DNA of 64,000 bases from assembly GCF_053078305.1 (NCBI RefSeq), contig NZ_CP166879.1; one strand, written 5' to 3'. The notes beneath the pieces were generated by a model, which searched no databases, had not been told where the DNA came from, and saw only the letters and a list, made by a program, of their open reading frames with translations. Both the position numbers and the translations under genes were made by a program. This document shows positions 3,730-41,652 of this stretch, piece after piece. Position 1 is the stretch's first letter. Each line of letters opens with the position of its first letter.

Positions 3730-5794
3730 ATTGATTTCATTCAGTGACCTACCTAGTTCTTTGGCAGGTCTGCACAAAAAAGCAAAGAGGGAAGCGTGGA
3801 AAACGCGGCTAAAACCAGGGGTAAAAGGGAAAGTTTTAGAGTGTGAAATAGGAGCTTTGCCTTTAACTGTTCAGCAGGCAGTACGCGAACGCCATGCCCT
3901 GCAACTGATGACGCAAAAAGCCGATGAATCACCGGCTCCGGTGGTGACAAAGGCCAGACGCTCACCTGCCGTGGTTGATGCGGTGGAGGCATATCGCGGA
4001 TCACCCCAACTGATGGTCGAACGCCTCAATGCCCTGACTGAAAATCAGCGCCAGGTGGCTGATGCACGAATCGCGATCGTCAGCGAAGTTCTGAAAGTCG
4101 CGCAACAACCTGGTTTCAGCTGTGCGAAGGCTATCCGGTTTATCGTTGACAACCTGGCACGTTCGCAGTTGGACGAGCGCATTGTGGCAATGGTTGAGAC
4201 GGCGAACGCCAAAAAGGGAAACAGCCGCGCGTTAAGTGAAATCACGCTGAAACGCTGGATTGCGGCCTTTAACAAGGCGCAGAACGCCGCTGAACGCCTG
4301 CTTTTACTGGCACCGGGTAAGCGCCAGGAAATAAAAGCCGAAGATATTAACTGGCTGCCCGAATTTCTGGCGCAGTATCGCCAGTCAAACGGCCGACCAA
4401 TGACCGAGGCTTACGAGGATTTTGTCGCTGAATGGCAGCACCGGCACGCCGATGAGCCTTATATGCTCGATATCATGCCGTCTTATGACACCATTCGCCG
4501 CGCAATGAAGAAACTGCCGGAAGTGGTGAAACAAAAAGGCCGGGTGACCGGCAGTGAATACCGCCAGCTTGAGGGATTCACGCGCCGCGACTGGTCAAAA
4601 ATGCCGGTGAATTATGTCTGGATTGGTGACGGTCACGGCATGAAGCTGAAATGCGCACACCCGGTTCACGGTCGGCCATTTGCACCGGAAGTGACCTTTG
4701 TTATCGACGGTGGCACGCGCTTTGTGGTGGGCTGGAGCCTTGACCTGGCTGAAAATGTTTTCGCCGTAGCCGGTGCCATACAGCACGGCATTCGCCATCA
4801 CGGCAAACCGTTTCTGTATTACTCGGATAACGGCTCCGGGGAAACCGCCGACATCCTGGATAAGGAGGTTGTGGGGATACTGCCGCGACTGGGGATTAAT
4901 CACCCGACCGGGATTGCCGGTAATCCGCAGGGACGAGGCATTATCGAACGGCTTAACCGCACATTACCGATGCGCATAGCCCGTAAATACCGCACCTATT
5001 TCGGGAAAGGTGCAGATCGCGAGACGTTACGCAAAACCAACCGCGATTTACGCTCGGCATTTACTGCCCTGCAACAGGGCAAACGGCTGAACGCCCGGCA
5101 GCAGTCAGCGATGCGTGATTTACCGTCCTGGTCTGAACTGATTGATGCCATTCGTGACGGTGTTGAGTGGTACAACAACCGGCCGCACGATGAATTACCG
5201 GTGAAGCCGAACGGCAAGCATTACAGCCCGGCGGAGTTCAGAAAAAAACGCCTGGCGGAAGAGGACACGGAAATTGAATGGCTGTCCGATGTTGAGCTGC
5301 GGGATATGTTCCGGCCGATGGTGGAACGCCCTGTAAGACGCTGTGAAATACGCTGGCTGAATAATATTTACTACGCGCCCGAGCTGCGTGACGAGCATGG
5401 TCGTAAGGTGCTTATCAGCTATGACATTCATGATGCCGAACGAATTACCGTACGTCGCCTGGATGGCAGCGTGATTTGCGAGGCGGTATGGGACGGTAAT
5501 AAACGCGAAGCCTTCCCGGTTAGCGCGGAATACTACAAACAGCAGCAACGCCTTAAAGGCATGCGTAAACGCGCAGAGGAAAAAATCCGTGATGCCGAGG
5601 ATGAGGTTGTCAACGTGCTGGAGCACAAGCCGCAGGAGCCCTGGCTGGAAAACATATACCGCCCTGTGGGTAATACGGTGACCGTTCAGCAACCGGTCGC
5701 TGACGATGAACCTGATGAAGAATACGAGCGTAATTTCCAGCGGGGATTGCAGTTGCTGGAAGCGAAATTAAAAGAAAATGACCCGCTGGCCTGA
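3710..5794 (+). CDS. Mu-type DDE transposase A
   Basis: ~700 aa ORF with repressor-like N-terminal DNA-binding domain; GGAGG at 3701-3705 favours the ATG at 3710 over the in-frame ATG at 3686. Confidence 0.85.
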   Translation: MWVAMTELISFSDLPSSLAGLHKKAKREAWKTRLKPGVKGKVLECEIGALPLTVQQAVRERHALQLMTQKADESPAPVVTKARRSPAVVDAVEAYRGSPQLMVERLNALTENQRQVADARIAIVSEVLKVAQQPGFSCAKAIRFIVDNLARSQLDERIVAMVETANAKKGNSRALSEITLKRWIAAFNKAQNAAERLLLLAPGKRQEIKAEDINWLPEFLAQYRQSNGRPMTEAYEDFVAEWQHRHADEPYMLDIMPSYDTIRRAMKKLPEVVKQKGRVTGSEYRQLEGFTRRDWSKMPVNYVWIGDGHGMKLKCAHPVHGRPFAPEVTFVIDGGTRFVVGWSLDLAENVFAVAGAIQHGIRHHGKPFLYYSDNGSGETADILDKEVVGILPRLGINHPTGIAGNPQGRGIIERLNRTLPMRIARKYRTYFGKGADRETLRKTNRDLRSAFTALQQGKRLNARQQSAMRDLPSWSELIDAIRDGVEWYNNRPHDELPVKPNGKHYSPAEFRKKRLAEEDTEIEWLSDVELRDMFRPMVERPVRRCEIRWLNNIYYAPELRDEHGRKVLISYDIHDAERITVRRLDGSVICEAVWDGNKREAFPVSAEYYKQQQRLKGMRKRAEEKIRDAEDEVVNVLEHKPQEPWLENIYRPVGNTVTVQQPVADDEPDEEYERNFQRGLQLLEAKLKENDPLA

Positions 5795-5865
5795 AATAAA
5801 AAAATAACCCGAGCGGCGACTCAGGTTATTTGATTAAACAAGGTATCAAATGAAAGGTTAATAAT

Positions 5866-6798
5866 ATGACTGATATTAACGATGTAATCAAGACCATTGA
5901 TGAACTTATTGATGGCGGCGTACTGACGCAGTATGCCATCGCCAGAGAGGCGGGAATTTCCGACGGCACATTATCGGCTTTCCGTAAGGGAAAATATAAA
6001 GGCGATAACGCTGCTGTGGCTGCTTCCCTGCGTTCCTGGTATGAGAACTGGAATAAACAAAGCGCACTGCCGGAACCGCCGCAGTTTGTGGAAACGCAGA
6101 CAGTCCAGGAGCTGCGCACACTGTTTCAGGCGGTTCGTCTGATGGGCTGTATTAACGTTATTGTGGGCGTACCGGGTGTGGGTAAAACGGCCACTGCCCG
6201 TAATTACTGCCAGGAGCAACCAAACACCTGGATGATCACCCTGTCACCCGCGCACTCCAGCGTCACGGAGTGTCTGCTGGAGCTGGCCGATGCGCTGGGG
6301 ATTGATTACACCCGCGCGAACAAAGGGGCATTATCCCGCGCCATCCGCCGTCGCCTGATGGGAACGCGTGGACTGGTGATTGTGGATGAGGCGGATCATC
6401 TTGGTATTGACGGTCTGGAGCAACTCCGGGCAATTCAGGACGCCACGGGGATCGGGATGGTGCTTATTGGTAACCCGCGCGGATTGTTTAAAGGTGGACG
6501 CCGCGCCTTTGATGATTTATCGCGCCTGTTCAGCCGTCTTGCCCGTACAAAACAACTTCGCAAGGCCAAAAAGGCGGATGTGCTGGCCATTGCCAGTGCG
6601 TGGGGGATCAGTGGTGAGGCCGAGCTGGCCGTCATGCAGGCTATCGCTGAAAAGCCGGGAGCGTTACGCGTTCTGACACATACGCTTAACCAGGCGTGGC
6701 TCACCGCCAGCGGTGAAGGCGCGGCGCTGACAGAAAAACATATTAATGCGGCCTTTAAAGAGGTTTATACCAACCCTGAATTACTCTCACAGGTGTGA
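5866..6798 (+). CDS. MuB-like transposition ATPase / target DNA activator
   Basis: 310 aa with Walker A GVPGVGKT and Walker B LVIVDEAD, immediately after the transposase. Confidence 0.85.
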   Translation: MTDINDVIKTIDELIDGGVLTQYAIAREAGISDGTLSAFRKGKYKGDNAAVAASLRSWYENWNKQSALPEPPQFVETQTVQELRTLFQAVRLMGCINVIVGVPGVGKTATARNYCQEQPNTWMITLSPAHSSVTECLLELADALGIDYTRANKGALSRAIRRRLMGTRGLVIVDEADHLGIDGLEQLRAIQDATGIGMVLIGNPRGLFKGGRRAFDDLSRLFSRLARTKQLRKAKKADVLAIASAWGISGEAELAVMQAIAEKPGALRVLTHTLNQAWLTASGEGAALTEKHINAAFKEVYTNPELLSQV

Positions 6799-36603: not shown

Positions 36604-37164
36604 ATGCTGATTGGCTATATACGCGTATCAACAAATGACCAGAACACAGGTTTACAAAGAAATGCGCTGGAATGTGCAGGATGTAAGCTGATTTTTGAAG
36701 ATAAAATGAGCGGAAAAACAACGCAGCGGCCGGGACTGAAGCGGGCACTGAAGAAACTAAAACCCGGTGACACGCTGATGGTCTGGAAACTGGACAGGCT
36801 GGGGCGCAGTATGCGCCACCTTGTTGCGCTGACAGATGAATTACAGCAACAGGGGATAAATTTTCGTAGTCTTACTGACAACATTGATACGTCAACCCCC
36901 ATGGGGCGCTTCTTTTTTCACATAATGGGTGCGCTGGCAGAAATGGAGCGTGAATTGATTGTCGAACGGACACGGGCTGGTCTTGCAGCTGCCCGTGAAA
37001 GGGGACGAACCGGTGGCAGACCCCGTCGTCTCACGCAGGAACAATACGAGCAGGTCGGGCGTTTACTGGCCGGGGGTGTCAGCCGAAGACAGGTGGCACT
37101 TATTTTTGATATCGGCCTTTCAACCCTTTATCGTTATTATCCTGCAAGCATTTCGGAAAAATAA
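36604..37164 (+). CDS. gin: Gin/Hin/Pin-family serine DNA invertase
   Basis: 186 aa starting MLIGYIRVSTNDQ… with resolvase catalytic domain and C-terminal HTH, adjacent to the inverted repeats. Confidence 0.9.
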   Translation: MLIGYIRVSTNDQNTGLQRNALECAGCKLIFEDKMSGKTTQRPGLKRALKKLKPGDTLMVWKLDRLGRSMRHLVALTDELQQQGINFRSLTDNIDTSTPMGRFFFHIMGALAEMERELIVERTRAGLAAARERGRTGGRPRRLTQEQYEQVGRLLAGGVSRRQVALIFDIGLSTLYRYYPASISEK

Positions 37165-37254: not shown

Positions 37255-39312
37255 ATGAATATTATGACGTCCAAATGGGTTCAACTATCATCAATGCCCG
37301 GAAACTTTACCGTTAAAGTTTCCGGTGGTACAGCGGCATTTCTTGAGGCTCCTTTTCCTCCGGCTGAAACGAAAGGAGGAATGACATTTGCTGACTGTCT
37401 CATCAGTTTTAATACACAGGATTGCCTGTGGGTAAGGCCAGTATCCGGTGATCCGAACGTGGAAATTACCGGAGCGGGTATTGGTGCTGTCATTCCGTTA
37501 AGTGCTGATGTTGCCGGTACTACTGAACCGTCAGACTGGGATAATGCTGAAACACATACCCGTCCGGCAGGAAATGAAACGGCTTCCAGCTCCCCTTCCT
37601 GGTATTACGTGATTGTTATAGCCGGTCAGTCCAATGCTTCATCTTATGGTGAAGGGTTGCCCCTGCCGGATTCTTATGATCGTCCTGATCCACGTATTAT
37701 GCAGCTGGCACGCAGGAATACACAAACCCCCGGAGGTATTCCCTGCAAATACAATGAAATCATTCCAGCAGATCACTGCCTTCATGATGTTCAGAATATG
37801 AGTCTGCTGAACCATCCAAAAGCAGACCTGAAAAAAGGGCAGTATGGTTGTGTGGGTCAGGGACTTCATATTGCGAAAAAAGTATTACCGGTGATTCCTG
37901 CTGATGCCGGGATTTTACTGGTTCCCTGTGCCCGTGGCGGCTCTGCTTTTACAACCGGCGCAGTTGGCTCATTCGATCCGGCAAGTGGTGCAGCCGAGGC
38001 GTCACTACGCTGGGGAGTGGATACCCCACTGTATCAGGATCTTGTCAGTCGAACGAAAGCGGCACTTGAGGCGAATCCAAAGAATGTGCTGTTATCTGTC
38101 GTATGGATTCAGGGGGAAGGAGACCTTAAAGCGACCCCGGCCCAGCATGGTGCCCAGTTTACTGCGATGGTGAAAAAATTCCGTGCGGATCTTGGTGCTT
38201 TCTCCGGTCAGTGTATTGGTGGTTCATCAGACAGTGTGCCGTGGTTATGTGGTGACACAACCTATGACTGGAAAGAGAAGAACCCGGCGGCATATGAAAC
38301 CATTTATAGCGGATATAAAAACCGGGCTTCCGAGAACATTCACTTTGTTCCACTGATGCACGATGAGTTCGGTAATAAAACCGCGACCAACCTGCCGGAG
38401 CACGACCCGGATATCGCTTCTGCCGGGTATTATGGTGCGGAATCACGGGGAGATGGCAACTGGACAACAGCATCCAGGGCAACCCATTTTAGCTCCTGGG
38501 CGCGCCGTTTTCTGGTCTCAGATCGTTTTGCATCAGCAATTCTTAAATATGCAGGTCTGACCTCTGCATTTATTGCCGGTGTGGCCCCTGATGGTGAAGC
38601 CCTGCCTCAGCCCGCGCCGGGTGGAAAACCGGAAGCTCCGACAGGTAGTCAGCCAGGAAGCAGTGAGTCCCCCCAGCCGACATCCCCGTCACTCCGTACG
38701 CTGCTTTCACTTAAAGCATCAGCAGGGGAAGCCCCGGCTCAGGGATGGAAAATTACAGATGGTACAATCCAGCTGACGGACGAAGGTAAAGCGCTGACCG
38801 TATCCAAACAAAGCGGAAAAACCTGGTCACTTACCCATGCGACCAGTGCTGCCGGAGAGCTGTTGCAGCATGGTGGTCAGTTGACCTGTAAATTCCGTCT
38901 GTCAGGTGAAGTAAAAGAAGGCCAGTTTGCTCTGGGTATTTACCTCCACACCGATACGGTCCCGGAAGGTGTAACCATGAGTGGTACAGGCACACCGTTC
39001 CTGATGGCGTATTATCTCCAGACAACAGGCGGCCAGTTAAATCTGATGCACCATAAAACAGGGGGGAATACGAAACTGGGATCATTTGGAGCCTACAATA
39101 ACCAGTGGCATACACTTGTCCTGAAGTTTACGGCGGGAAGTGCCCAGGTAACGCCTGTGCTGGATGGCACTCCGGGCCAGGCATTCCAGATGGTGAAAGA
39201 TGCACTTTCCCCTGCCAAAGATACGCTGACACTGACAGATGTCACCAAAGGGGCAACTTATGGCGTGTCTTTTGAGAGCGTTGTCCTTGAGGTTAATACC
39301 CCTGCGGCATAA
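37255..39312 (+). CDS. NanS-like SGNH esterase (putative 9-O-acetyl sialic acid esterase) with C-terminal extension
   Basis: 685 aa; residues ~115-430 closely resemble recalled E. coli NanS/YjhS (YYVIVIAGQSNASSYGEGLPLPDS…DTPLYQDLVSRTKAAL…CGDTT…DRF); ~250 aa extra C-terminal domain. Confidence 0.7.
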   Translation: MNIMTSKWVQLSSMPGNFTVKVSGGTAAFLEAPFPPAETKGGMTFADCLISFNTQDCLWVRPVSGDPNVEITGAGIGAVIPLSADVAGTTEPSDWDNAETHTRPAGNETASSSPSWYYVIVIAGQSNASSYGEGLPLPDSYDRPDPRIMQLARRNTQTPGGIPCKYNEIIPADHCLHDVQNMSLLNHPKADLKKGQYGCVGQGLHIAKKVLPVIPADAGILLVPCARGGSAFTTGAVGSFDPASGAAEASLRWGVDTPLYQDLVSRTKAALEANPKNVLLSVVWIQGEGDLKATPAQHGAQFTAMVKKFRADLGAFSGQCIGGSSDSVPWLCGDTTYDWKEKNPAAYETIYSGYKNRASENIHFVPLMHDEFGNKTATNLPEHDPDIASAGYYGAESRGDGNWTTASRATHFSSWARRFLVSDRFASAILKYAGLTSAFIAGVAPDGEALPQPAPGGKPEAPTGSQPGSSESPQPTSPSLRTLLSLKASAGEAPAQGWKITDGTIQLTDEGKALTVSKQSGKTWSLTHATSAAGELLQHGGQLTCKFRLSGEVKEGQFALGIYLHTDTVPEGVTMSGTGTPFLMAYYLQTTGGQLNLMHHKTGGNTKLGSFGAYNNQWHTLVLKFTAGSAQVTPVLDGTPGQAFQMVKDALSPAKDTLTLTDVTKGATYGVSFESVVLEVNTPAA

Positions 39313-39584
39313 TCGTGACGGCCGGGAATTTATCCGGCTGTAACATCAGTTAATAAGAGTGAGGCTTATATGACATATATAAACGTCTGCCTGCTGTATT
39401 TCTGCACGGTGGTTTGTTGTCTGTTGCTTGTCAGCGGTGGTTATAAAATTATTCGCAATTATTTTCGAAATAAAATTGATGCAGCTGCCGAGGAAAAGAT
39501 AAAAAGCGGTGCTGTAATGCCGCAGCCGAAAGACTCCGGTCAGATTTAATTTTTTGTGAACCAGAAAAGGAAAGGAGAATATTC

Positions 39585-39830
39585 ATGCCAGAGATTAAAG
39601 GCACGGTTACTGAAGAGCTTGTCAAACAGGCACTTTATTCTGAAGAAGTGAACCGCGTGCTGAAGGCGCAGGTTCGCAAGGATTTTGAGGCACAAATCGA
39701 CGCATATGTTGATGAAGTGCTGGCCCGAATGGTTGGCCATTCTCCGGCTGAAAACAGCACGGAGAATGAGCCTCAGCCCGTAGAGCAACCAGAGCCGGTT
39801 CAGCCCGGAACTGACAGTGCCATGATGTAA
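39585..39830 (+). CDS. hypothetical small acidic protein
   Basis: 81 aa ORF with strong SD AAAGGAAAGGAG upstream. Confidence 0.4.
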   Translation: MPEIKGTVTEELVKQALYSEEVNRVLKAQVRKDFEAQIDAYVDEVLARMVGHSPAENSTENEPQPVEQPEPVQPGTDSAMM

Positions 39831-39904
39831 CAATACAAACCGACAGCTTCTCCTGTCGGTTTGATTTTCATGGGCGATGTATATACCAGTCAGAGGAAAT
39901 AATC

Positions 39905-40105
39905 ATGGACAAGAACAAAAAGCAGCCCGATACCAAAGGTCTGGAAATATTAAGCGCAGAAATTATCAATGCGCTACGTTCAGGACTTGATGAAAATACA
40001 TTACAGGATCGAAACTTCACCACTGCAATGTGGATAGCGATGCAGATCCTGTGTACCCCAAGATGCGCTATTTTTGCGGTTCGTGAGGGTCAGTTGACTC
40101 GCTGA
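39905..40105 (+). CDS. hypothetical small protein
   Basis: 66 aa ORF, weak support. Confidence 0.3.
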   Translation: MDKNKKQPDTKGLEILSAEIINALRSGLDENTLQDRNFTTAMWIAMQILCTPRCAIFAVREGQLTR

Positions 40106-40298
40106 TTGCCCGAATTACATCAGAAAAGCACGCGTTCCATAATTGCATAGCTGATGAATCACCAGCTGTATGAAAAGAGGTAAAGACACAACTGGTGGAT
40201 GTCATTGCTGCAATTGTGATATCAGCTGCAATTCGCGCAGCCTGTAACTTTTGGTCGGTGGTCAGTTTATCCATTTTCTCCTGCCTGAACAGATGCAT
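40068..40298 (-). CDS. hypothetical small protein
   Basis: 76 aa ORF on the opposite strand overlapping the previous ORF; only one of the two is likely real. Confidence 0.25.
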   Translation of the reverse strand: MHLFRQEKMDKLTTDQKLQAARIAADITIAAMTSTSCVFTSFHTAGDSSAMQLWNACFSDVIRAISESTDPHEPQK

Positions 40299-40529
40299 CT
40301 CTGCTTTACAGGAGGCCGGGGAATATCATAGGATACACCACGAGCTCAGAGTGAAGCATTGATGCAGTTTTTTACAGATTGACCCAGAATAGTTCGCGCT
40401 ATCTGAGTCGCCATTTATGTAGTCCCGAAGTAAAGCATTGATGCAAACTTGTCTAAATCGGCCCAGCATAGTTCCAGCTATGCTGGGTTTCCCTTTTATG
40501 TAGTATCCTGTTGATTTGAAACATACTAC

Positions 40530-40760
40530 ATATACGCGCGATCCTACCTTCACTGGATAAAAAGTCAATAAAATGATCATTTTATGATCGTTTTCACCAC
40601 CTAACTCTTCGTTTTCTTTAAGTAAATAATCACCGCCCTGAATCATTGTTGATGACTTTTCAATCTATTTGTTGTATCAATTAAACAAATCGAATCGATC
40701 GTTTTTGTCGATCGATTGCATGAGAAAGGCATCAACAACAAAGCAGGAGGTTATGCGGCC
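40530..40760. promoter_or_regulatory. putative mom operon control region with clustered Dam (GATC) sites
   Basis: GATC at 40540, 40575, 40586, 40697 and 40710 within ~180 bp upstream of com; Dam-regulated mom promoter in Mu is established knowledge. Confidence 0.45.
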
Positions 40761-40961
40761 ATGTATCGAAACATACGGTGCCGACACTGCAATAAGCTAC
40801 TGGCACGGGCCAGTTTCAGTTATCTGGAAGTAAAATGTCCGCGCTGTAAAACCCTCAATCAAATCACATCTCCGAGCGCCACAGAGCACCCCACATACAC
40901 AAGGAAATCCTGTCGTGGGGAACAGAAAGCAAGTCACATCCCGTATCATCAGCACGCCTGA
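40761..40961 (+). CDS. com: Com-like zinc-finger translational activator
   Basis: 66 aa from the ATG at 40761: [14 protein letters not shown]…[10 protein letters not shown], two CxxC pairs as in Mu Com; 3' end overlaps the mom start. Confidence 0.7.
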
Positions 40962-41652
40962 ACTTATTCGCTATAACGACAATATCGTTGGTTATGGTTC
41001 CCGTGAGTTGCGGGTTGAGACAATAAGTTGCTGGCTGGCCAGACTGGTTATCGTCAATAAACATTACAGCCACCGTTTCGTAAATAACTCCTACCTTCAT
41101 CTGGGCATATTTTCAGAACGGGAACTTGTTGGCGTAATGCAATGGGGTTACGCCCTTAACCCAAACAGTGGTGCACGCGTCGTAACGGGTACGCAGAACC
41201 GAGAATATATGGAGCTGAACCGGCTATGGATGCATGACTGTATGCCGAGAAACTCCGAATCAAGGGCAATCAGTTACGCGCTCAAGCTAATCAGGCAGCT
41301 TTATCCGCAGGTACAGTGGGTTCAGTCGTTTGCAGATGAGCGTTGTGGCTGTCTTGGTGTCGTGTATCAGGCAAGCAATTTTGATTATGTAGGCAGCCAT
41401 GAAACAATATTCTATGAACTTGATGGCGAGTGGTATCACGAGATTTGCAGGAATGCCATTAAACGAGGCGGACAACGAGGTGAACATCTGAGGGCTAATA
41501 TCGACAGAGCCAGTGTGCATAAGTTCCGACAGTTTCGTTACATCCGGTTTCTGAACAAGAGGGCCAGAAAACGCCTCAACACAAAGCTATTCAAAGTCCA
41601 GCCTTACCCAAAACCACAAACAGTTAAAACTGGTTTGAAAGAGAGTGAATGA
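40915..41652 (+). CDS. mom: Mom-like DNA modification protein
   Basis: 245 aa ORF (GTG start) overlapping com and located at the right phage end, the Mu com/mom arrangement; function by position and architecture. Confidence 0.6.

Follow-up and report, generated by a model that had tools for sequence, protein, structure and literature searches.

Small genes between gin and com of a Mu-like prophage: probably two unrelated pieces of accessory cargo

The interval between positions 39585 and 40298 of the stretch of DNA analysed here (the window, 64,000 nucleotides of contig NZ_CP166879.1 in RefSeq assembly GCF_053078305.1) contains three small open reading frames, which raises the question of whether these are genes and, if so, whether they are one kind of thing. 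All three were present as the initial annotation had listed them, at 39585–39830 and 39905–40105 on the plus strand and at 40068–40298 on the minus strand, and the two on opposite strands did indeed overlap, tail to tail and by 38 nt. An ORF listing returned 53 frames of at least 30 aa within 5 kb, showing that ORFs of this size are abundant by chance; the reality of the three was therefore judged by their substitution patterns. The initial annotation had allowed that none of them might be conserved; when this was examined, all three were found to be conserved and under purifying selection. They could not be sustained as a single class of object, since one is the tail of a widespread module while the other two are orphans in a rare, swappable cassette. 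The interval is probably best read as two unrelated pieces of accessory cargo, lying between gin and com of a Mu-like prophage. That this is accessory right-end cargo, as had been suggested, agrees with the distance from gin to com, which is approximately 3.6 kb here but 94 bp, with no cargo, in Mu. The left edge of the cargo and the module to which the first ORF belongs comprise the following features:

36604..37164, plus strand: gin-like DNA invertase, left edge of the cargo (~70% DNA identity to Mu gin; the RefSeq homologue is a recombinase family protein)
37255..39312, plus strand: predicted carbohydrate esterase with SASA and DUF6645 domains, NanS-p-like, 685 aa, first gene of the module (Pfam, phrog_143)
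39370..39549, plus strand: DUF1378 single-pass membrane peptide, 59 aa, second gene of the module (Pfam DUF1378, phrog_494)
39572..39577, plus strand: Shine-Dalgarno sequence AAGGAG of the DUF826 gene (read from the sequence; 7-nt spacer to the ATG at 39585)
39585..39830, plus strand: DUF826 protein, 81 aa (Pfam DUF826, phrog_311)
39836..39863, both strands: putative module terminator, an 11-bp GC-rich hairpin (terminator scan, folding)

The order of the module in the window (esterase, DUF1378, DUF826) matched that of lambdoid loci. In E. coli chromosomes whose DNA here is near-identical, RefSeq lists these three products too, with a 'DUF826 domain-containing protein' next to a 'DUF1378 family protein'. 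The 685-aa protein matched the Pfam families SASA (1.6e-13) and DUF6645 (6e-26), as well as phrog_143 (1.5e-273), and is predicted from these domain matches to be a NanS-p-like esterase. The 59-aa peptide matched Pfam DUF1378 (9e-24) and phrog_494 (4e-29); it has one hydrophobic segment at residues 4–22 (Kyte-Doolittle 2.46), followed by a basic helix, and is probably a bitopic peptide of the inner membrane, its basic helix lying on the cytoplasmic side. The interval as first delimited leaves out this gene (39370–39549), which forms one module with the 81-aa gene. Downstream of the module, the hairpin at 39836–39863 had a folding energy of -17.0 kcal/mol on the plus strand (z -4.75) and -18.6 kcal/mol on the minus strand (z -4.98), and its plus-strand side was followed by the U-run UUUGAUUUUC. 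This hairpin was interpreted as a likely intrinsic terminator that closes the esterase module.

The 81-aa ORF had been described as acidic and as preceded by a strong ribosome-binding site; both descriptions were accurate, the protein having a pI of 4.36 and a net charge of about -9, and the AAGGAG motif lying 7 nt 5' of the ATG. Nothing had been recognised in any of the three ORFs, which holds for the overlapping pair (no family or fold match) but not for the 81-aa protein. This matched Pfam PF05696 (DUF826) at 56.6 bits, against a gathering cut-off of 25 bits (E = 2.9e-15, profile positions 1–52 of 75), and phrog_311 over its full length (9e-30). An alignment of 21 family members showed M1, T9, V13, K14 and K27 to be invariant, and T9, V13, K14 and K27 are present in the 81-aa protein. 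The AlphaFold2 (AF2) model placed helices at residues 10–17 and 20–50 (pLDDT 79–90), while the tail (51–81) fell below pLDDT 50 and the overall value was 68. The layout is thus one of a helical N-domain of approximately 52 residues, followed by an acidic, disordered tail rich in proline and glutamate that ends QPEP..T..MM. Family members differ in the length of the tail, which abounds in Pro, Glu and Asp, and in those of full length the terminus QPEP-x-T-(M/L)-(L/M) recurs. Among Mu-like alleles the median omega was 0.15 (N-domain 0.12, tail 0.19), and in the first 52 codons 20–22 of the 30–32 differences from diverged alleles were at third positions. The model and the alignment together suggest a soluble, acidic, helical protein with a disordered tail and a conserved C-terminal motif.

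Comparison of the DUF826 protein with the PDB by sequence produced nothing significant, the best match (E = 0.09) being chain 9r2l_A, labelled 'N37', a name that a literature search did not identify; Foldseek comparison of the model with the PDB gave no match either (best E = 9). A 95-aa ORF antisense to the DUF826 gene (39546–39833) was rejected as spurious, with one synonymous change against 22–23 non-synonymous ones. The family also includes a short, tail-less subfamily, located directly upstream of terminase genes where there is no esterase, DUF1378 or holin; in addition, the esterase and DUF1378 are both missing from one or more lambdoid loci with DUF826 (L087).

A DUF826 relative was found at 80 IMG/VR loci, of which 31 were Mu-like and approximately 44 lambdoid, the remaining five having the short, tail-less DUF826 alone. 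The 31 Mu-like loci had the layout Gin, esterase, DUF1378, DUF826, a variable stretch, Com and Mom, while the lambdoid layout was esterase, DUF1378, DUF826, holin, (DUF1327) and lysozyme; in annotated lambdoid loci, antiterminator Q was followed by a NanS-p-type esterase, DUF1378, DUF826, holin, (DUF1327) and lysozyme in turn. In Stx2a phages the DUF826 and DUF1378 ORFs likewise lie between nanS-p and S (PMC10462455). In the window the module occurs between gin and com/mom, and not within a late operon between Q/stx and the holin.

The esterase showed ~67% DNA identity and ~51% protein identity to yjhS/nanS-p of Stx and lambdoid phages, and in a neighbour-joining tree the Mu-like esterase alleles formed a separate, deep clade. 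Because of this divergence and the clade of its own, the module is probably old in the Mu-like lineage, where it appears to have been long resident and diversifying. The alleles of the module were mosaic; a single DUF826 allele occurred next to DUF1378 alleles whose identity was 100, 81 or 59%, and the esterase alleles found with it were 100, 57 or 60% identical. This free recombination of DUF826 relative to DUF1378 and esterase alleles argues against an allele-specific partnership. The shared module gives prophages in one chromosome that are otherwise unrelated a region of homology, which had been used for recombination at two hybrid loci. A literature search found no paper that links nanS-p or an acetylesterase with Mu-like phages, and a search on the 933W locus tags L0105–L0107 produced only unrelated papers. 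To our knowledge, the two small genes that always follow nanS-p esterases have never been studied.

It is tentatively proposed that DUF1378 and DUF826 act jointly at the membrane, in a role tied to the esterase or to late envelope events. DUF1378 might serve as anchor or partner at the inner membrane, and the job of the pair would then go with the esterase, or with late-stage envelope events generally, rather than with a particular holin. Two observations sit uneasily with a membrane pair, namely the recombination of alleles between DUF826 and DUF1378, and the stand-alone DUF826 subfamily. Apparent fusions of the two proteins were not taken to indicate interaction; N-terminal extensions due to a different choice of start codon would explain P0018 and phrog_8301, and P0022 seems to be a lone read-through variant.

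A competing explanation is that the lambdoid holin is what DUF1378 and DUF826 serve, as accessories in lysis timing (antiholin-like proteins or modulators), and that they travel with the esterase as passengers in the Mu-like phage. The approximately 44 lambdoid loci have the pair immediately upstream of a Phage_holin_2_1 gene, and DUF1378, being small and spanning the membrane once, resembles many lysis regulators and has a very weak match to an Rz-like spanin PHROG (E = 0.21). However, the 31 Mu-like loci have the pair far from lysis genes and intact, with omega values of 0.15–0.22 (0.22 for DUF1378 among Mu-like alleles) and alleles down to 59–72% identity; passengers would be expected to decay over such divergence, and the hairpin terminator cuts the pair off from downstream sequence. 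This phage has its own, different lysis cassette about 25 kb away. Because the pair is maintained by selection in a phage with distant lysis genes, its role would not be tied to the lambdoid holin, and the accessory explanation was considered improbable. An intact trio under selection in a Mu-like phage amounts to a natural experiment, and one that points the small genes towards the esterase or late envelope events over the lambdoid holin.

The second piece of cargo is the cassette to the right of the terminator, which contains both overlapping ORFs:

39868..40292, strand not assigned: type A cassette, 425 bp, both overlapping genes (comparison with other E. coli prophages)
39905..40105, plus strand: orf66, 66-aa orphan (GAGGA ribosome-binding site 7 nt upstream; intact loci, omega)
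40068..40274, minus strand: orf68, 68-aa orphan, core of the 76-aa ORF (omega, open frame)

Comparison with other E. coli prophages showed that the slot has sharp boundaries at 39868 and 40292; its limits are the module terminator (39836–39863) and the conserved mom control region. Of 5,426 complete E. coli genomes, 16 contained the type A cassette, which was absent from the plasmids searched; lysogens STEC299 (NZ_CP022279) and STEC2018-607 (NZ_CP075697) have a copy identical to that of the window. In 200 of the same genomes the slot was occupied by type B, an unrelated cassette of 190 bp (as in L002) with a 64-aa minus-strand ORF of CxxC..CxxC type, and in 18 by type C, ~640 bp in length and encoding a minus-strand ORF of 97 aa. 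Types A and B share the right-hand junction at which their minus-strand ORF starts, and each long ORF opens with 'MH', followed eight codons on by 'MDK'. Overall, three or more cassettes can occupy the slot, and a small minus-strand gene from that right-hand junction is present in each. Some relatives differ on the right side, where a Com-linked cytosine methyltransferase stands in place of Mom, and of the cassette these keep the left 296 bp alone, which include orf66.

The evidence that orf66 is a gene came from its conservation. It was intact at all 13 loci that hold it, and comparison with an allele ~8% diverged showed 11 synonymous changes against three non-synonymous changes (omega = 0.06). 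Its AF2 model was helical, with a low pLDDT of 61 that ruled out a useful fold search, and the protein includes a borderline hydrophobic helix (Kyte-Doolittle 1.53).

The start of the minus-strand ORF required correction, from 40298 (76 aa) to the internal ATG at 40274 (68 aa). This start was preferred because at locus L005 the ATG at 40298 reads ATA and a 1-nt deletion separates the two starts. Omega for orf68 was approximately 0.13–0.36, reaching 0.36 across the whole ORF and 0.13–0.20 in the part that does not overlap orf66. In that part, synonymous and non-synonymous codons numbered 7:4 and 11:4 in two comparisons; by substitutions, 7/12 and 11/17 were synonymous, against an expectation of ~23% (binomial p = 0.01 and 0.0003).

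The frame of orf68 also bears on a simpler explanation, that only orf66 is a gene and the minus-strand ORF is a non-coding open stretch, being the 3' UTR of orf66 or an antisense RNA. Locus L001 has a nonsense allele of orf68 (W46*) with orf66 intact, and three loci (L006, L007 and L033) have orf66 without orf68. RefSeq has a 45-codon fragment or nothing at orf68, the AGGAG that might serve it as a ribosome-binding site is merely 3 nt from the ATG, and the higher omega across the whole minus-strand ORF points in the same direction. Against this are the synonymous excess in the non-overlapping part, and the frame itself, which is the only stop-free one there and lacks any stop in three alleles ~8% diverged; all other frames except its mirror showed mostly non-synonymous changes, with stops. 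The simpler explanation was judged unlikely, and orf66 and orf68 were both interpreted, from their substitution patterns, as lineage-restricted orphan genes under purifying selection.

Orphan status was examined widely for both proteins. Among 5.8 billion proteins searched, every relative had at least 83% identity, a tblastn search of 50,697 phage records found none, and comparison with the PDB by sequence gave nothing below E = 1. Neither protein had a match in Pfam, PADLOC or NCBIfam, which includes any known toxin, antitoxin or defence family. Residues 10–34 of the 76-aa minus-strand ORF gave a weak match to phrog_25148 (1.4e-4), and an Rfam scan of 39000–41000 produced one sub-threshold chance match only.

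The region between the cassette and the right edge of the cargo contains the following features:

40326..40646, minus strand: 106-aa ORF, probably not a gene, spanning the terminator units and the mom control region (indels, RefSeq)
40376..40500, plus strand: two copies of a ~79-bp unit, each a hairpin plus T-run, rightward and terminator-like (self-match of ~75% identity)
40761..40961, plus strand: com (Pfam Zn_ribbon_Com 3e-12; the RefSeq Com CDS of 201 nt fits the ATG at 40761)
40915..41652, plus strand: mom, with com the right edge of the cargo (Pfam Mom 3e-77; ~72% DNA identity to Mu mom)

The ~79-bp unit occurs in one or two copies depending on strain and locus, and variant stems keep their pairing. 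The hairpin at 40460–40489 (-21 kcal/mol, z -4.6) is followed by UUUCCCUUUUAU. By these features the units at 40376–40500 look like rightward terminators, which may shield the mom control region from read-through. The 106-aa ORF on the opposite strand was rejected as a gene lying upstream of orf68; it is broken between strains by the change in copy number of the 79-bp unit (not a multiple of three) and by 1-nt indels, its RefSeq homologue is a frameshifted pseudogene, and it matches phrog_26524 at positions 1–75 of 135 only. The sequence from 40500 to 40716 was almost invariant across strains and contains several GATC sites, including a GATC-rich inverted repeat that resembles the one before Mu com. 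At 40568..40541 lies a conserved site, TTGACT-16-TAGGAT, that resembles a leftward promoter; a promoter scan found no convincing sigma-70 promoter for orf66. When the gin-to-mom interval was compared with Mu by blastn there was no match, as only gin and mom align (~70–72% DNA identity), and momP1/momP2 and the C box were not placed. In Mu itself, momP1 and momP2 are divergent promoters, and RNA polymerase occupies momP2 without C (PMC4287176).

By analogy with Mu, orf68 might, in the absence of the late activator C, be transcribed leftward out of the mom control region, as from momP2; that the genes of types B and C share this mode of expression is possible but doubtful. If orf66 were read rightward into the terminator units at 40376–40500, and orf68 leftward, then the two transcripts would be mutually antisense.

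The same arrangement could suggest that orf66 and orf68 form a two-gene conflict system, acting in toxin-antitoxin fashion, in superinfection exclusion or in anti-defence with mom, in which the antisense overlap sets the ratio of the products. Two small conserved genes that overlap tail to tail would suit this, as would a patchy distribution (16/5,426 genomes) in a cassette-swapping slot, which adjoins the anti-restriction gene mom and, in some relatives, the Com-linked cytosine methyltransferase that replaces it; the borderline hydrophobic helix of orf66 fits also. However, no PADLOC, Pfam or NCBIfam match was found, and the two genes do not co-occur obligately, given that orf66 is kept alone at L006, L007 and L033 and remains intact beside the orf68 stop codon of L001. 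Neither orf66 without orf68 nor a knockout of orf68 would be expected if one product neutralised the other, and a conflict system seems very unlikely as an account of the pair, which we continue to regard as two orphan genes.

The NanS-p esterases of prophages are believed to aid pathogenic E. coli in using O-acetylated sialic acids of mucin (PMC10462455). A more ambitious synthesis, speculative and rather improbable as stated, would combine both pieces of cargo. The slot would be a dedicated expression slot, in which a momP2-like promoter, active in the lysogen alone, where C is absent, drives interchangeable small genes (orf68, the 64-aa CxxC..CxxC gene and the 97-aa gene) leftward; in type A, the antisense orf66 and orf68 would constitute a two-state switch, with a novel role in conflict or in modulation of the host. 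Independently of this, DUF1378 and DUF826 would act as membrane anchor and acidic adaptor for the release or activity of sialate esterases that help EHEC to grow on mucin.

Taken as a whole, the cargo is ordinary and its architecture tidy, and contains nothing to surprise a phage genomicist. The DUF826 family is already catalogued and the module has been noted in Stx phages; the cassette of orphan genes is rare.

The locus can be compared with four known systems. With respect to the right end of Mu, gin and mom are ~70–72% identical in DNA, Com and Mom match their Pfam families and a GATC-rich element precedes com in both phages, but the control region here cannot be aligned to that of Mu. With respect to the nanS-p region of Stx and lambdoid phages (in 933W and H-19B: stx, nanS-p, two small ORFs and holin S), gene order is the same, spacing is similar and an esterase with SASA and DUF6645 is common to both; however, the N-terminal DUF1737 of lambdoid esterases is absent here, and there is no Q antiterminator, stx or holin nearby. 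As a member of the DUF826 family (PF05696/phrog_311), the 81-aa protein matches the profile end to end across its N-terminal ~52 residues and is preceded by DUF1378, as are most members. It differs in adjoining com/mom in a Mu-like prophage, where lambdoid members lie upstream of a holin, and in having a shorter tail (81 aa in total, against 89–101 aa in many lambdoid members) that ends ...PGTDSAMM and not ...QPEPGTML.

The last comparison is with phage morons, which are independently acquired accessory genes situated between conserved genes in phages of the lambda/HK97 type, and which in the classical definition have their own promoter. Here too, small and patchily distributed genes lie between conserved backbone genes, terminators flank the cassette on both sides and alternative cargo fills the same position in relatives. 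The own promoter of a classical moron is the point of difference, since no consensus promoter was found for orf66, although the leftward promoter-like site could serve orf68. The orphan pair offers a small and well-delimited example of cassette swapping beside an anti-restriction gene.

In two of the comparison loci, DNA of a Mu-like prophage was joined to that of a lambdoid one within the esterase module, the run of esterase, DUF1378 and DUF826 genes that is common to both phage groups.

Hybrid loci with a junction inside the esterase module
L029, 2666-4639: hybrid locus in IMGVR_UViG_2617270962_000007
L090, 96-5136: hybrid locus in IMGVR_UViG_2617270951_000022

The esterase of L029 was a fusion of a DUF1737-type N-terminus to a Mu-like C-terminus; the genes upstream of it were lambdoid, whereas those downstream (DUF1378, DUF826, Com and Mom) were of the Mu-like type. 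In L090, Gin and a Mu-like esterase preceded lambdoid DUF1378, DUF826, holin and lysozyme genes. Judged from these sequences, the esterase module seems to be a recombination bridge linking unrelated prophages.

A whole Mu-like phage of the window's family was also observed within an Stx prophage in LC727895.1 (locus L004) and LC727881.1; both records were deposited as Stx-converting phages, and the target duplication of the Mu-like insert was annotated in them. Among phage-database records, the DUF826 allele of the window was found in these two only.

A short, tail-less DUF826 subfamily (approximately 55-60 aa) was also observed, having small and large terminase genes immediately downstream and methyltransferase- or glycosyltransferase-like genes upstream; no esterase, DUF1378 or holin gene was found near its five listed members.

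Tail-less DUF826 genes
L067, 824-1027
L072, 958-1119
L073, 5001-5162
L074, 1725-1949
L077, 1072-1293

A sequence search of the PDB with the DUF826 core returned nothing significant, and the sole lead was chain A of 9r2l ('N37', 147 aa), residues 32-82 of which matched the core at a non-significant E of 0.09.

Two alternative cassettes occupied the swappable slot between the module terminator and the mom control region, and their ORFs matched no family in PADLOC or NCBIfam.

Alternative slot cassettes among 5,426 complete E. coli genomes
L018, 5285-5479, minus strand: type B ORF, 64 aa, zinc-ribbon-like (CxxC..CxxC); 200 genomes
L030, 5423-5716, minus strand: type C ORF, 97 aa; 18 genomes

In the window itself, the following features were delimited.

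Window features
40326-40646, minus strand: 106-aa ORF, matching phrog_26524 over positions 1-75 of 135 only
40376-40500: tandem repeat of a ~79-bp unit, copies ~75% identical
40500-40760: stretch near-invariant between strains, with several GATC sites
40568..40541, leftward: promoter-like site, its -10 element overlapped by GATC

Each copy of the ~79-bp unit contained a hairpin and a T-run, resembling a terminator on the plus strand; elsewhere one or two copies were present according to strain, and the stems differed in sequence among strains while retaining their pairing. The 106-aa ORF, a homologue of which is annotated in RefSeq as a frameshifted pseudogene, is probably spurious and lies over regulatory DNA, and phrog_26524 may have been built on miscalled ORFs of the same kind.

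In the otherwise similar Mu-like prophages of L006 and L007, a DNA cytosine methyltransferase gene (5424-6630 in both) took the place of Mom. It still lay downstream of a Com-family gene, which suggests a different payload for DNA modification, subject to control of the com type.

Com in the window most likely starts at ATG 40761, rather than at TTG 40716. The near-invariant stretch included an inverted repeat, AATCGATCGTTTTTGTCGATCGATT, at 40693-40717, which is similar to the GATC cluster that precedes com in Mu.
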